From: Thermoproteota archaeon
Lineage (GTDB): Archaea; Thermoproteota; Methanomethylicia; Nezhaarchaeales; WYZ-LMO8
Reading direction: 5' to 3'
NCBI GenBank assembly: GCA_011605835.1
Contig: JAAOZJ010000130.1
Coordinates: 1-35,643, forward strand
Length of the DNA: 35,643 nt
In this document: positions 11,287 through 35,643 of the stretch, piece by piece
How positions within the stretch are numbered: the stretch's first letter is position 1
Layout of the letters: every line of letters begins with the position of its first letter
Made by a program: the position numbers and the translations under genes
Notes under the pieces: model-generated
Database searches by the model: none
What the model was told of the DNA's origin: nothing
Seen by the model: the letters and a program-made list of their open reading frames with translations, nothing else

Positions 11287-12096
11287 TTGAGCTTGCTCAG
11301 CTCAGTAGCCCTCGCCAAGGTAATCCTCTGCGCCGCGGCCCTCGGGCTGGCGTCCGTTCAGGACTGGAGGACCAGAGAGGTCGGCGACACCATTTGGCTG
11401 GTGATGGGTTGCTGTGGGGCGGCGTTGAGCGCTCTAGAGCTCTTGATCAACTTTTCCTACTTCCGCCTCGCGGCCTTGGCCCTGTCGGCGGCGCTCTGCT
11501 TCGCACTCGGCCTCGGGCTGTACTACTTGGGCTTCTTCGGGGGCGCGGACGCGAAGTGCTTGTGGTGCTTAGGGGCTACCTTGCCGTCCAACCCGCTGGA
11601 GAAGCTGGGGCTCAGCCCCCTAGGCCCCCAGAACCCGATATTCTCGATATCAATATTTAACAACTCCGTTTTGACTGCTGCCTTCCTAGCCTTGGGCATC
11701 GCGCTCTTGAACGCCACCAAGAGAGCTAAGGGCCCGCTCTTCACCAATGAGGAGAGGAGCTTCTGGAAGCGCCTCGTCGCGGTTGTGATGGGTTACAAGG
11801 TTAGTGTCTCTAAGGTCCTTGAGAGGAGGGACTTCTACTTCCCCTTGGAGGAGTTCGCCATCAAGGGAGGAGAGGTCGAAAGGAGGTTCAAGCTCTCGAC
11901 TAAGGTCACGGACAGCGACCCCTACGCGGTGCTGGAGAAGCTGGTGAAGGAGGGATTAATGAGAGGGGACGAGGAGATCTGGGTCTCGCCAGCGATACCG
12001 CTCATCGTGAATATAACTTTGGGCTTCTTTGTATCCCTGCTCTACGGCGACCTAGTGCTGGCCATAATAGAGAGCCTCTTGGCTCCCACGCTATAG
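11287..12096 (+). CDS. A24-family aspartic peptidase (prepilin/preflagellin peptidase, FlaK/PibD-like)
   Basis: 269 aa polytopic membrane protein. The two catalytic-Asp contexts are QDWRTREVGD and GFFGGADAKCL (GxGD-type). It also has a soluble C-terminal insert as in FlaK. TTG start ~30 nt downstream of CCTTTAAAAAC. Confidence 0.7.
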   Translation: MSLLSSVALAKVILCAAALGLASVQDWRTREVGDTIWLVMGCCGAALSALELLINFSYFRLAALALSAALCFALGLGLYYLGFFGGADAKCLWCLGATLPSNPLEKLGLSPLGPQNPIFSISIFNNSVLTAAFLALGIALLNATKRAKGPLFTNEERSFWKRLVAVVMGYKVSVSKVLERRDFYFPLEEFAIKGGEVERRFKLSTKVTDSDPYAVLEKLVKEGLMRGDEEIWVSPAIPLIVNITLGFFVSLLYGDLVLAIIESLLAPTL

Positions 12097-12105
12097 CTGG
12101 GAGCA

Positions 12106-12470
12106 GGTTTCTCCAAAGCAATTCCTTGCAGTAATTATGAATACCTACAAGGACGCCCTAGGGGTCCCTCACGTTGGATCAGACCTTCATTCCCTTGCTC
12201 GCTAGGCCATCAAGACTCCACGTAACCCGAAAGCCCCTCATCTGCTCTTTGCCTTTCTTTTTTGTTCGGGCAAACCGTCATGATGACGGTTGCGTGCTCC
12301 TCATCGTTTCTCGTGGGCTCTCGCAGGTTCGTGGTTTAAATGACAGATGGGTTATAGGTGTTGTGGAAGCCGACTTCTTCCCCACCTTGAAAGGCGAGGC
12401 TTTCAGTTGTAAAAGCGAGTTACCACGTCTTTGCAGTTATTTATCGGGGCGGTTCGGCGTTTTATCTGAA
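12106..12470. repeat. Non-coding repeat element, copy A (homologous to 34424-34761)
   Basis: It shares ordered identical cores with copy B: GGTTTCTC, GCAAT, AGGCCATCA, CTCCACGTAACCC (12216-12228), AAAGCCCCTCA, CGGTTGCG, CCTCATCG, GTGGTT, GTGTTG, CCACGTCTTTGCA (12423-12435), TATTTA, TTTATCT. The intervening indels are not multiples of 3. Confidence 0.7.
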
Positions 12471-13475
12471 ACTCGTAAGGGCCTCCCTCGCGCGCCTAGC
12501 AACCTCTCGAGCGACGTCCACGGTCTTGGCCGTGCCGCCCATGTCCGGTGTCAGCACCCTGCCCTCCGCTATTAGCTCATCGACGGCCACCTCTATCGCT
12601 CTCGCCCTCTTGGCATCCCCCAAGTAGCTTAACATCATCGCCGCCGAGAGTATGGAGGCTATGGGGTTAGCAACGCCCTTGCCAGCTATGTCGGGAGCGG
12701 TCCCGTGAACCGGCTCGAACATCGCGTAGCCGTCGCCTATGTTCGCCGAAGGGGCGAGCCCTAGGCTCCCCACGACCCCCGCCGCGACGTCCGAGAGTAT
12801 GTCGCCGAACATGTTCGGCGTCACGAGGACGTCTAGGGTCTCGGGGGCCACCACTATCCTGTAGGCGGCTGAGTCGACGACGATCTCCTCGGCTTGGATC
12901 TCGGGGTAGAGCTTTGCGACCTCGAAGAAGGCGGAGCGAAAGAGGCCGCACGACTCCTTCATCACGTTGGCCTTGTGGACGACCGCGACCTTCCTCCTGC
13001 CCTCCCTCTTGGCCAACTCGAAGGCGAATCTCGCTATCCTCTTGGAGGCCCTCTCGCTCACGACCCTGAGGGTTATGGCCGTGGAGCCCAGCCTGTACTC
13101 TATGCCAGAGTACAGGTCCTCGGTGTTCTCCCTCACTATGACCATGTCGATCTTCTTGGATGCTTTGCCGAAGCTCTTGAACGGCCTGACGTTGGCGTAG
13201 AGGTCCAGCGTCTGCCTCAGCATCACCGTGACCGACCTGTAGGAGTCGGTGCCTGGGGGCGTCATCAGCGGTCCCTTGAGCACGCACCTACAGCTCCTTA
13301 TTACGTCTAGGGCGCCGTCCTCCATCGGCTTGCCAGTCCTCCTCCAGTACTCGTAGCCAGCCTTTACCTCCACGTACTCAGCATCGAAGTCCAGCGCCTC
13401 GAGGACCTCGAGAGCCGCCTTTATGACCTCGGGACCTACACCGTCGCCGTAGATGAGAGCTATCTTAAAGCTCAA
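12462..13475 (-). CDS. 3-isopropylmalate / homoisocitrate dehydrogenase family protein (LeuB-type beta-decarboxylating dehydrogenase)
   Basis: A TTG at 13475 is preceded by GGAGG 8 nt upstream and gives MSFKIALIYGDGVGPEV. VRENTEDLYSG and GSLGLAPSANIG motifs are present. The ~337 aa length fits LeuB/HICDH rather than the longer ICDH. Confidence 0.8.
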   Translation of the reverse strand: MSFKIALIYGDGVGPEVIKAALEVLEALDFDAEYVEVKAGYEYWRRTGKPMEDGALDVIRSCRCVLKGPLMTPPGTDSYRSVTVMLRQTLDLYANVRPFKSFGKASKKIDMVIVRENTEDLYSGIEYRLGSTAITLRVVSERASKRIARFAFELAKREGRRKVAVVHKANVMKESCGLFRSAFFEVAKLYPEIQAEEIVVDSAAYRIVVAPETLDVLVTPNMFGDILSDVAAGVVGSLGLAPSANIGDGYAMFEPVHGTAPDIAGKGVANPIASILSAAMMLSYLGDAKRARAIEVAVDELIAEGRVLTPDMGGTAKTVDVAREVARRAREALTSFR

Positions 13476-18582: not shown

Positions 18583-18670
18583 GGGCCCGTCGTCTAGCTT
18601 GGACAGGACGCCAGCCTGCGGATGACCAGTAGAGAGCTGGAGGTCCGGGGTTCAAGTCCCCGCGGGCCCG
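18583..18670 (+). tRNA. tRNA-Arg (anticodon GCG) with a 13-nt intron at the canonical 37/38 site
   Basis: Hand-folded cloverleaf. Acceptor GGGCCCG/CGGGCCC; D arm GTCT-AGCTTGGACA-GGAC; anticodon stem CCAGC/GCTGG with loop CT-GCG-G. The insert ATGACCAGTAGAG precedes A38. T arm CGGGG-TTCAAGT-CCCCG; discriminator G. CCA is encoded at 18671-18673. Confidence 0.85.
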
Positions 18671-19045
18671 CCACTAACTTGCAAGGATCGATGACATGTG
18701 AGGTCTAGGCCCTAGCCGTCCAATTCTCACAAACCTGTCGTTCTTAAAGCATCAGCCCAACAGCGATCTCGCCAAGCACTTCGGAGCCCTGCGTGAAAAC
18801 TATTTCCCCGAGACTATTCCTTTGCAAGGAATTGCCTTAGGGTTTCCGACTCCATTCAGGGCCTTCATCGACTACTTCGTGACCTCCACGGGCGACTCAA
18901 GGGCCTCGAGATCCTATGTCTTTGTCAGGTACTTCTCCGTGGCGCAGACCCTCGCTAAGCTCGTCGGCGCTACCATTACCAGCCGCTCGCCCCATGCTGG
19001 CTTGAGGGCGAAATTCTAATTATGGCAGTAGGCCTACTTATCTTG

Positions 19046-28159: not shown

Positions 28160-28165
28160 AGTTGA

Positions 28166-28261
28166 TGGCCCGGCCGGGATTTGAACCCGGGTCTCCGGCT
28201 CGAAAGGCCGGGATACTTGACCTGGCTCTACGGCCCACGCAGGCCTCTATACGACCGGGCC
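28166..28261 (-). tRNA. tRNA-Glu (anticodon UUC) with a ~21-nt intron in the D-loop
   Basis: The reverse complement reads GGCCCGG-TC-GTAT-AG[AGGCCTGCGTGGGCCGTAGAG]CCAGGTCAA-GTAT-C-CCGGC-CTTTCGA-GCCGG-AGAC-CCGGG-TTCAAAT-CCCGG-CCGGGCC-A. Removing 21 nt restores a normal 75-nt cloverleaf. The intron core forms a GGCC-TGCGTG-GGCC helix. Confidence 0.8.
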
Positions 28262-34251: not shown

Positions 34252-34326
34252 GGGCCCGTAGCTCAGCCAGGATAGAGCAACGGCCTTCGGAGCCGGAGGT
34301 CGGGGGTTCAAATCCCCCCGGGCCCG
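34252..34326 (+). tRNA. tRNA-Arg (anticodon UCG), intron-less
   Basis: GGGCCCG-TA-GCTC-AGCCAGGATA-GAGC-A-ACGGC-CT-TCG-GA-GCCGG-AGGTC-GGGGG-TTCAAAT-CCCCC-CGGGCCC-G. The acceptor stem and discriminator are the same as in the GCG isoacceptor. There is one A-G mismatch at 27:43. No CCA is encoded. Confidence 0.85.
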
Positions 34327-34423
34327 TCTTCTACATTGTCATCTAATGTAGAACGAGCAAATGATGTGGATAATCGTGAAGGCCAAGACTCTCTCTCTTT
34401 GCGTCCTCTACAGTTGTGCTAAG

Positions 34424-34761
34424 GGTTTCTCTAAGGCAATCACTTTAATCAGCTCTGAACAGTTTTGAACGTTCACAACTCGATCGCCTTGGGGTTCCTC
34501 GCATCGGTCGGGTTCTCACCCTCTCACATGCGAGGCCATCAGGGCTCCACGTAACCCCAAAGCCCCTCACACGCCTTCAGCCTTTTACTCCTGCCCTCTC
34601 TTTGGCTCGGGGCAATAGTCATCGATTCTGCGGTTGCGCGTCCCTCATCGCTCTCACGAGCTCACGGGCGTGGTTCAAGTGGTGAGCGGCTAGCAAGTGT
34701 TGCGTTGGGCGGAGGTGGTCTCCACGTCTTTGCAACTATTTACAAAGACGCTTTATCTAAA
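34424..34761. repeat. Non-coding repeat element, copy B (homologous to 12106-12470)
   Basis: It has the same ordered cores as copy A, for example CTCCACGTAACCC at 34545-34557 and CCACGTCTTTGCA at 34722-34734. The ORF track shows no ORF of 60 aa or more on either strand across 34424-34696. Confidence 0.7.
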
Positions 34762-35643
34762 AGCTACAACGGCTCTCCTCACAGCTTCTCTGTGCAACGG
34801 CGTTTGCCAAGCAACGTCCTTCCCGATCCCCAGCTCCAGGTCCTTCTCAGGTGGGGGCTCGTCGATCCAGAACCAAGGGTCCCTGTCGTATATGTTGTAC
34901 ACTATGAGGTTCTTAGCGATGAGCTCTTCTCTGAGGCCATCCGGGAAGTCCTCTTCCCATAGGCTTTGAGGATCCTCAACTACCCTCTTCAAGTAAGAGC
35001 TCCACTTTTTAATGAAGTCCTTCGTCAATTCCTTTGCCCTCACGAGCTCTGCCACGACCGCGTCCGCCTTCCACTTGGCCTCGTAAAGCTTCGCGAGCAT
35101 CTCGGGGTTACCGCCTGTGAGCCTCCACGCCTCCTCGAAGTCGGGCTTAGGCCCGGGCAACTTCTCGTACAGTTCCTCGAACCCCTTCTTACTCATGTTC
35201 CACATGGGCCTAATGGTCGCCCACCTGTGCCTGCCTATCTCCCTCCTTGACAGGCCCTCACTCGTGGCGGCTATCGCCACTATCCTCTCATAACCCTCAG
35301 GAGGATATTCCACTAGACCTAGCAGGGCCTTAACGTACATGGCAGCCTTGTCCGGCCCTATGGCTTGAAAGGCGTCGTCGACCAAGACCGCGACCTTCCC
35401 CCTCCTCCACTTGCTCACCAGCCACTTGACCGCGTCTATCGCCAGCGTCGCTAGCTTCAGCTGAGCCACCCCGATGGCCTCGGAGGTCGCCTCAGCGAAC
35501 TTCTCGACGAGTTCCCTGACGTCCGTGCGAACGACGAAGTCCCTCCGCATCGGATCCACGTAGATCGCCTCATAGCCCATCTCCCTCAAAGTCTCGGTCG
35601 CCTGCTTGAGCCATGCTGTCTTACCGCAGCCCTCGGGCCCGAA
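34753..35643 (-). CDS. Archaeal-type ATPase (PF01637-like P-loop NTPase), 5' end beyond the right edge
   Basis: The reading frame stays open upstream of the ORF-track start to the window edge. It reads FGPEGCGKTAWLKQATETLREMGYEAIYVD (Walker A GxxGxGKT), followed by VLVDDAF (Walker B-like). Confidence 0.7.
   Translation of the reverse strand, partial: FGPEGCGKTAWLKQATETLREMGYEAIYVDPMRRDFVVRTDVRELVEKFAEATSEAIGVAQLKLATLAIDAVKWLVSKWRRGKVAVLVDDAFQAIGPDKAAMYVKALLGLVEYPPEGYERIVAIAATSEGLSRREIGRHRWATIRPMWNMSKKGFEELYEKLPGPKPDFEEAWRLTGGNPEMLAKLYEAKWKADAVVAELVRAKELTKDFIKKWSSYLKRVVEDPQSLWEEDFPDGLREELIAKNLIVYNIYDRDPWFWIDEPPPEKDLELGIGKDVAWQTPLHREAVRRAVVAFR

Follow-up and report, generated by a model that had tools for sequence, protein, structure and literature searches.

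Two homologous spacers of a Thermoproteota contig are very probably decaying, gene-less derivatives of a TnpB transposable element with a predicted omega-RNA scaffold

A stretch of 35,643 nucleotides (nt) from a Thermoproteota archaeon (GenBank assembly GCA_011605835.1, contig JAAOZJ010000130.1, positions 1 to 35,643 of the forward strand; termed the window throughout) carries two spacers, copies A and B, that resemble each other. Copy A lies between a gene for a type IV prepilin-like peptidase A24 on the plus strand and a gene of the isocitrate/isopropylmalate dehydrogenase family (Iso_dh) on the minus strand. Copy B lies between tRNA-Arg(tcg) on the plus strand and an archaeal ATPase_2 gene on the minus strand. 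The genes that flank A are unrelated to those that flank B. An earlier reading, made from the sequence alone (the sequence-only reading), had left the pair unassigned, and listed as options a new structured non-coding RNA (ncRNA) family, a 3′-untranslated-region (3′-UTR)-type regulatory module and a non-autonomous mobile or intergenic repeat family. The analysis described here indicates, with high confidence, that A and B are non-autonomous, protein-less derivatives of a tnpB-only (IS1341-like) IS200/IS605 element, of the type termed palindrome-associated transposable elements (PATEs), and that they are probably decaying relics in this genome. The two elements are as follows.

12105 to 12479, minus strand: copy A, whole gene-less (PATE-type) element of 375 nt, right end at 12105 and left end at 12479; assigned by homology to short and full-length family members; absent from the same junction in L074-L077.
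34423 to 34770, minus strand: copy B, whole gene-less (PATE-type) element of 348 nt, right end at 34423 and left end at 34770; assigned by homology to family members; present in the same-species contig L080.
12373 to 12414, minus strand: private segment of about 40 nt in copy A, from the pairwise alignment; missing in B and in the other short elements; forms a hairpin with a weak HgcC-like match.

Pairwise alignment confirmed that A and B are homologous along their whole length and in the same orientation, with the identical cores listed by the sequence-only reading in the same order, and that copy A carries about 40 extra nt. Two of the cores, CTCCACGTAACCCNAAAGCCCCTCA and CCACGTCTTTGCANNTATTTA, occur twice each in the window against an expectation of zero. 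The plus-strand open reading frame (ORF) at 12174-12575 over A had been described as broken in B, and the ORF lists indeed showed no counterpart of it there. The boundaries first proposed, 12106-12470 and 34424-34761, were close on the low side; on the high side the elements reach about 10 nt further by family homology. A repeat search detected neither terminal inverted repeats, as had been noticed before, nor flanking direct repeats in A or B, and the flanks differ at the two ends.

Both spacers had been described as lying between convergent genes. They are not purely intergenic, since each of the two minus-strand host genes has its stop codon inside the element. Iso_dh ends in ..ALTSFR* (stop at 12462-12464) and ATPase_2 in ..AVVAFR* (stop at 34753-34755), both stopping at the AGATAA of the left end. 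The left end of the transposon supplies the stop and the last 5-6 codons of both genes, whose C-termini and stop codons are transposon-derived sequence; in a relative free of the insertion Iso_dh ends in ..DVYFRL* instead (L074:3430-3620). As Iso_dh and ATPase_2 read into the left ends, host transcripts could run into the element.

12420 to 12479, minus strand: copy A left-end region, aligned to the family left end; includes the Iso_dh stop codon.
34715 to 34770, minus strand: copy B left-end region, aligned to the family left end; includes the ATPase_2 stop codon.

Relatives of the two copies were found by a core-motif scan of public contigs in genome and metagenome collections. The genome collection yielded one true match, in a Thermosphaera metagenome-assembled genome (MAG), and the metagenome collection yielded 71 loci, of which about 60 clearly belong to the family; a small number of hot-spring data sets account for most of these. 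Similarity between the copies begins abruptly at (G)GGTTTCCCCGAGGCAAT, upstream of which the flanks are unrelated, and in all copies it ends sharply at GGGTTTC.. and ..ACGG. The surroundings of the copies are unrelated to one another, and with respect to neighbouring genes both orientations occur. These results bear on the proposal that A and B are the edges of a larger segmental duplication, or ordinary 3′-UTR or terminator sequence conserved by its context. Both copies do lie downstream of minus-strand genes and supply their stops (..SFR* and ..AFR*), and read-through from the host genes is the sole support for a 3′-UTR-type module. Both versions are contradicted by the sharp boundaries and by some 60 further copies at unrelated loci. 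The flanking genes are unrelated, and paralogy of these genes was rejected along with a segmental duplication; in addition, an empty site exists (see below). This explanation merits next to no credence.

In 33 of the loci the core lies inside the 3′ end of an ORF of 410-427 amino acids (aa) on the strand opposite to the window plus strand. In at least 21 of the 33, 300 aa or more of the ORF are covered; in about 9 others a contig end truncates it. Judged by profile and alignment matches, this parent ORF is a divergent TnpB of the IS200/IS605 family, IS1341-type. It matches TIGR01766 with 45.6 bits (cut-off 32) and Pfam Cas12f1-like_TNB above the cut-off; the match to NCBIfam guided_TnpB (E 2e-20) is below that model's cut-off. 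The RuvC D/E/D residues of the parent TnpB align with those of a solved Cas12f. A protein collection contained 521 homologues, which carry the NCBI names 'IS200/IS605 family accessory protein TnpB(-related)' and come from Desulfurococcaceae and Candidatus (Ca.) Verstraetearchaeota MAGs. The core spotted in the sequence-only reading encodes ..RMRGFWVTWSPDGLA.. near the TnpB C-terminus. The RuvC D/E/D residues of this TnpB clade stand in the motifs GVDLN, IAFEGL and SRDVIASWNIA (L052:8297-9700; L025, L010, L068; protein P0001), and the clade has no cysteines at the CCCC zinc finger positions of TnpB/Cas12f (TSRRSPNGK.., VELGGV..).

The parent element measures about 1.55 kb and carries tnpB on the window minus strand. 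A full-length copy, read in window plus order, is laid out as follows.

First part: right-end tip GGGTTTCCCC..; tnpB (minus strand); tnpB start in ..CTCGGGGGCAACCGCC..GCGGTTGCTCTGACCCTCATCGT; TATA-like region.
Second part, after the TATA-like region: ORF of about 48 aa on the other strand; left end closing ..TTGACAAATGATGCTAACTCAGCAACGG.

The conserved ~48-aa ORF of the full-length elements is divergent from tnpB (MSLVYVFEGKVIRYGGGRYVVYPPREYQEKLRRLHGEKVKVIVVKEGE) and lies about +1250 to +1400 nt from the core (for example in L025, L010, L063 and L068); no Pfam match was found for it.

About 25-30 of 64 copies are without the tnpB body. One group of these could be aligned together as internal-deletion derivatives: A, B, L036 (the ortholog of copy A, 97% including flanks), L003, L012, L045/L062, L067 and L071. 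Each of them retains the right end with a C-terminal remnant of tnpB, the first ~15 tnpB codons and the left end. The first ~15 codons are the cores CGGTTGCG and CCTCATCG of the earlier description. In the window, the 5′ half of each copy corresponds to the tnpB 3′ end and right end, the middle to the region of the tnpB start codon and the 3′ part to the left end of an IS200/IS605-type element. Comparison of A and B with full-length copies by blastn covered the right-end half only; the left half was placed by multiple alignment of the short elements with full-length left ends. The coding remnants are listed below.

12266 to 12304, minus strand: tnpB start stub in copy A (ATG at 12304-12302, followed by about 12 codons), in a different frame from the C-terminal remnant; aligned to full-length tnpB 5′ ends.
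34603 to 34648, minus strand: tnpB start stub in copy B (ATG at 34648-34646); aligned to the tnpB 5′ ends of full-length elements.
12161 to 12259, minus strand: copy A TnpB C-terminal coding remnant (..RGFRVTWS..), overlapping the scaffold; found by tblastn with full-length TnpB.
34490 to 34615, minus strand: copy B TnpB C-terminal coding remnant; tblastn, 62% identity over 42 aa, E 1.5e-10.

The TnpB similarity left in A and B thus amounts to 33-42 aa, with no intact ORF and with stub and remnant out of frame. Protein coding by A or B was considered and rejected, since the small minus-strand ORFs MRGFRVTWS../MRGFGVTWS.. represent what is left of the C-terminus of TnpB, the stub is in another frame than this remnant and there is no further conservation. 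The view that conservation acts at the nucleotide or RNA level and not at the protein level is upheld. Of the three options of the sequence-only reading the third, a non-autonomous mobile repeat family, proved correct, given the homology to the ends of TnpB elements. The mobile-element match explains the element over its whole length, an outcome that the sequence-only reading had itself named as one that would refute it.

Locus L003 was examined as a syntenic ortholog of B, as ATPase_2 adjoins its left end, and was rejected. Its other flank differs and its insertion point is about 25 nt away, which makes it a separate insertion beside a paralog.

A second short type, gene-less and about 270 nt long, is predominant in Thermosphaera-like loci (L001:1371-1660, L019, L037, L038, L040, L044, L049, L058, L060, L066 and L069). 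Its copies combine a near-perfect scaffold (160-173 bits with the model described below) with a TATA-like box, TTTAAATTTATTA, which lies about 75 nt upstream of it. The L001 copy lies between two ABC permease genes and is antisense to both.

Structure analysis was carried out on 55 distinct right-end sequences written in tnpB sense. Across these, 97.3% of the cells were paired, compared with 57% when the partners were slid by one column, and the covariation score was 0.171 against 0.079 in shuffles, with none of 500 shuffles reaching the score. Three helices, P1, P2 and P3, were supported. Helix P1 is formed by GGGGCUUU/GGAGCCCU, and the candidate minus-strand helix GGGGCU-14 nt-AGCCCU, proposed from the two window copies, turned out to be this helix of the family consensus. 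In the 7-bp helix P2, compensatory changes were seen in 5 of 7 pairs, in three sub-lineages (CCUCGCA/UGCGAGG, CCCGGGC/GCCCGGG and CCCCCGC/GCGGGGG). Helix P3 is a 13-bp terminal stem round a variable insert, and it ends 6 nt from the right-end tip. A pseudoknot of GGGUU with AACCC at the extreme 3′ end, both invariant, is possible. Three of the P1 pairs are G-U in 52-55 of the 55 sequences. These would be A.C on the other strand, which points to the tnpB sense, the window minus strand, as the functional strand, in line with the strand already favoured. As a separate observation, the B core at 34486-34496 (GCUUUGGGGUU, RNA sense) is complementary to the P3 5′ arm at 34553-34563 (AACCCCAAGGC). 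Such a pairing would be an alternative to P1/P3 and is also possible in the family consensus; covariation supports neither.

In full-length copies the tnpB stop lies 85-106 nt past the core, within a conserved block ending ..GGGGAAACCC. The last ~50 tnpB codons together with the sequence up to the right-end tip form the predicted scaffold of about 160 nt, which is almost wholly in the TnpB frame. Its position, its architecture and the unrelated flanks beyond it match known omega RNA (also called reRNA) and the archaeal sotRNAs (PMC4615843), by analogy with which it is taken as a predicted omega-RNA scaffold. A covariance model built from the relatives, R1, matched only copies A and B in the window, both on the minus strand.

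12105 to 12252, minus strand: copy A predicted omega-RNA scaffold, degenerate; R1 103.3 bits, 7 non-canonical pairs.
34423 to 34581, minus strand: copy B predicted omega-RNA scaffold, mildly degenerate; R1 144 bits, two C.A mismatches in P3.

Elsewhere in the retrieved loci the model also gave weak but significant matches of 28-36 bits (L038:1581-1672, L038:8217-8321, L044:11661-11765, L044:5767-5870, L013:1770-1919 and L052:9820-9920), which may be more distant right-end or omega-RNA relatives from other TnpB families.

The covarying helices invite the reading of A and B as an independent, novel structured ncRNA gene family unrelated to mobile elements, which had been the leading idea of the sequence-only reading. 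The cores are indeed separated by variable blocks with indels that are not multiples of three, and no Rfam family explains A or B. At gathering thresholds Rfam gave three tRNAs only in the window. With the thresholds relaxed, the one match in A was to HgcC (RF00062), with 24.6 bits against a gathering score of 50, and B had none. Yet the ends of a TnpB insertion sequence and its gene stubs account for the whole length of both copies. Family members stand in unrelated contexts in both orientations, and the insertion at copy A is absent from close relatives. The labels 'unassigned' and 'new family' are thus wrong, and the probability left to this reading is negligible. The HgcC candidate was itself rejected as chance or partial similarity: only the 3′ hairpin CCUCGCCUUUCAAGGUGGGG matches, in the private ~40 nt of A (window 12357-12489, minus strand).

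Two other tRNA genes of the window have unusual features. A tRNA-Ala(tgc) at 18583-18673 has a 16-nt intron, and a tRNA-Glu(ttc) at 28164-28237 has a low Rfam score of 35.5 bits with an irregular acceptor/D-arm alignment.

Beyond the right-end tip, identity between copies was about 25-28%, compared with 87-92% over the last 24 scaffold columns. Unrelated flanks past the tip are as expected of guide positions, and by analogy the following segments may have a guide role.

12085 to 12104, minus strand: copy A putative guide flank GCUCCCAGCUAUAGCGUGGG, directly 3′ of the tip ..GGAGAAACCU; overlaps the peptidase A24 stop at 12094-12096.
34403 to 34422, minus strand: copy B putative guide flank UUAGCACAACUGUAGAGGAC, directly 3′ of ..GAGAAACCC.

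No second targets of the two putative guides were found in the window, where only the flanks themselves match.

The site of copy A was compared with those of relatives. In L074 and L075 (Iso_dh 91% identical) the order GLUCM-like_C / Iso_dh / peptidase A24 is kept, with a 20-nt spacer and no R1 match. In L076 and L077 (Nezhaarchaeales genomes, Iso_dh 82-83% identical) the gene order is the same, Iso_dh and peptidase A24 overlap and again no R1 match is present. Since these relatives keep the flanking gene order without copy A, it is an insertion of about 375 nt. Copy B has an ortholog of 144 bits in the same-species contig L080. In L078/L079 (triose-phosphate isomerase 88% identical) there is no R1 match beside tRNA-Arg, and the gene content past the tRNA also differs. 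Downstream of tRNA-Arg(tcg) (window 34252-34326 onward) the window has ATPase_2, L078/L079:4695-5676 has a 281-aa ORF without a Pfam match in L078, and L081:4530-5585 has another set. Such differing gene content in close relatives suggests a variable or integration-prone locus.

As to the element ends, an imperfect palindrome, GTTGACATCACTTGTCAAC, stands in subterminal position in the left end of the family, about 12 nt from the tip, and stem P3 is the counterpart near the right end. The left-end palindrome is diverged in A and B, and B has other hairpins. All 13 copies compared, and A and B as well, have RGCC (tnpB strand) next to the left end, and the right-end tip is AACCC. RGCC may plausibly be a transposon-adjacent motif; in comparison with the diverged empty site, GCC could be either host or element sequence.

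12480 to 12483, minus strand: candidate transposon-adjacent motif of copy A, GGCC, from comparison of left-end flanks; aligns with host sequence in the empty site.
34771 to 34774, minus strand: candidate transposon-adjacent motif of copy B, GGCT (AGCC on the tnpB strand), from comparison of left-end flanks.

These results can be combined in a model for the origin and working of such elements. An internal deletion removed nearly all of tnpB from a parent of ~1.55 kb. On the minus strand there remain the left end, about 15 codons from the start of tnpB, the C-terminal remnant that doubles as the predicted omega-RNA scaffold, and the right end. Mobilisation would depend on a TnpA-type transposase supplied in trans. 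Transcription of the minus strand, by read-through from the upstream host gene or from a retained TATA-like box, would yield an omega RNA whose 3′ guide would be the ~16-20 nt flank past the right end. Guided by this RNA, a TnpB produced elsewhere would cleave the empty site, which would favour retention of the element.

Several observations weigh against this interpretation or limit it. The G-U (G-T) asymmetry of P1 also fits single-stranded top-strand DNA recognised by a transposase, and is thus no proof of RNA. As no Rfam family matches, the omega-RNA identity comes from position and analogy, and the omega RNA is predicted, together with its strand and ends. None of the family members was seen to have a tnpA gene next to it. 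The relative with the empty site is about 15% diverged, and about 35 nt of its host sequence is without a counterpart in the window. The left-end boundary and the motif next to it are placed approximately.

The condition of A and B was assessed from R1 scores and divergence. Copy A scores 103 bits and copy B 144 bits, whereas the 60 other full-length matches lie mostly at 145-182, with four lower at 124-144; A and its ortholog L036 have the lowest full-length scores in the family. Between strains the scaffold has diverged by 4.0% (A vs L036) and 4.4% (B vs L080), as against 0.6-1.8% for the flanking genes, and the L080 ortholog of B is mutated at an otherwise invariant core base. Within the window, tblastn with full-length TnpB detected no full tnpB. 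With low scores, broken pairs and a scaffold that diverges faster than the flanking genes, A and B appear unconstrained in this lineage, and they are probably decaying, inactive relics.

On a different view, the short elements function as stand-alone guide-RNA genes under selection, and A and B would still be functional. Transcribed from their own or a host promoter, they would provide omega RNAs loaded in trans on the TnpB of full-length copies, and would protect insertion sites or target other DNA. Conservation in tnpB-less copies, where coding constraint is absent, speaks in its favour: the scaffold core (search pattern excluded) is better conserved than the rest of the element, at 93% vs 83% in the Thermosphaera type and 82% vs 60% in the B type. 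The Thermosphaera-type copies, moreover, combine near-perfect structure with the TATA-like box that precedes the scaffold, the left ends of A and B are entered by reading frames of host genes, and trans use of PATE omega RNAs has been proposed by Meers et al. (PMC10055086). The scaffold-core conservation could reflect selection on the guide-RNA/right-end module, or merely the transposition needs of the master copies, and the motif search brings some ascertainment bias. For the window copies, the terminal stem by the guide has 2 (B) to 7 (A) non-canonical pairs, and the between-strain divergence and the mutated L080 ortholog described above argue in the same direction. Functional guide genes at A and B are accordingly improbable. 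At the level of the family, it is somewhat less doubtful, though still unlikely, that tnpB-less elements are kept as stand-alone guide-RNA genes which parasitise transposase and TnpB from elsewhere and form a dispersed, array-like guide pool in thermophilic archaea, of which the window copies would be worn-out members.

With decayed, gene-less TnpB elements as the preferred reading, the correct annotation of A and B is that of IS200/IS605-derived gene-less elements with an omega-RNA remnant, and not of a new RNA family. The interest lies in the family and not in the two decayed window copies. With ~60 copies and 521 TnpB homologues it is a potentially useful natural data set. Its zinc-finger-cysteine-less TnpB and in-frame scaffold bear on guide-RNA evolution once free of coding constraint, and on the engineering of thermostable TnpB/omega-RNA systems.

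The omega RNA (reRNA) of TnpB IS200/IS605 elements was reportedly described in 2021 in the work of Karvelis and of Altae-Tran. With such RNAs (ISDra2 and others), and with the archaeal sotRNAs (Gomes-Filho 2015, PMC4615843), the module predicted here shares the tnpB sense, a structured stretch from the tnpB 3′ end to the right-end tip, and a stem-loop and possible pseudoknot just before a flank-derived guide. It differs from known omega RNA in that no Rfam model matches, the ~160-nt scaffold is nearly all in the TnpB frame and the cognate gene is deleted in A and B; here the module is read from sequence alone.

Classical MITEs (miniature transposable elements with inverted repeats) are likewise miniature, non-autonomous, multi-copy derivatives of insertion sequences, but they have terminal inverted repeats and usually target-site duplications, and A and B have neither. 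PATEs are a closer parallel. Initially reported from Haloquadratum walsbyi (Dyall-Smith et al. 2011, PMC3119063), they derive from IS605-type elements by core deletion, and some retain disrupted C-terminal coding sequence (PMC3119063). In common with A and B they are too short for a transposase and have neither terminal inverted repeats nor target duplication; with the A/B family they share near-terminal palindromes, core deletion of tnpB elements and strain polymorphism. Unlike those of haloarchaeal PATEs, the hosts here are a thermophilic archaeon labelled Ca. Verstraetearchaeota, close to Nezhaarchaeales, and Desulfurococcaceae/Thermosphaera. There is no sequence similarity to the haloarchaeal elements, and the deletion here also spares the region of the tnpB start codon.

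The gene-less IS200/IS605 elements of Geobacillus stearothermophilus offer a further comparison. There, PATE elements 'often encode omega RNAs', for which TnpB is needed in trans (Meers et al. 2023 preprint, PMC10055086). Both sets retain their two ends, left and right, along with the guide-RNA module, and would depend on TnpA and TnpB in trans. For Geobacillus, a bacterium, the partner TnpA is known and activity has been tested, whereas the present family is described from its sequences and no TnpA partner was seen. Gene-less TnpB elements with a guide-RNA module are therefore a class already described (PMC3119063, PMC10055086).

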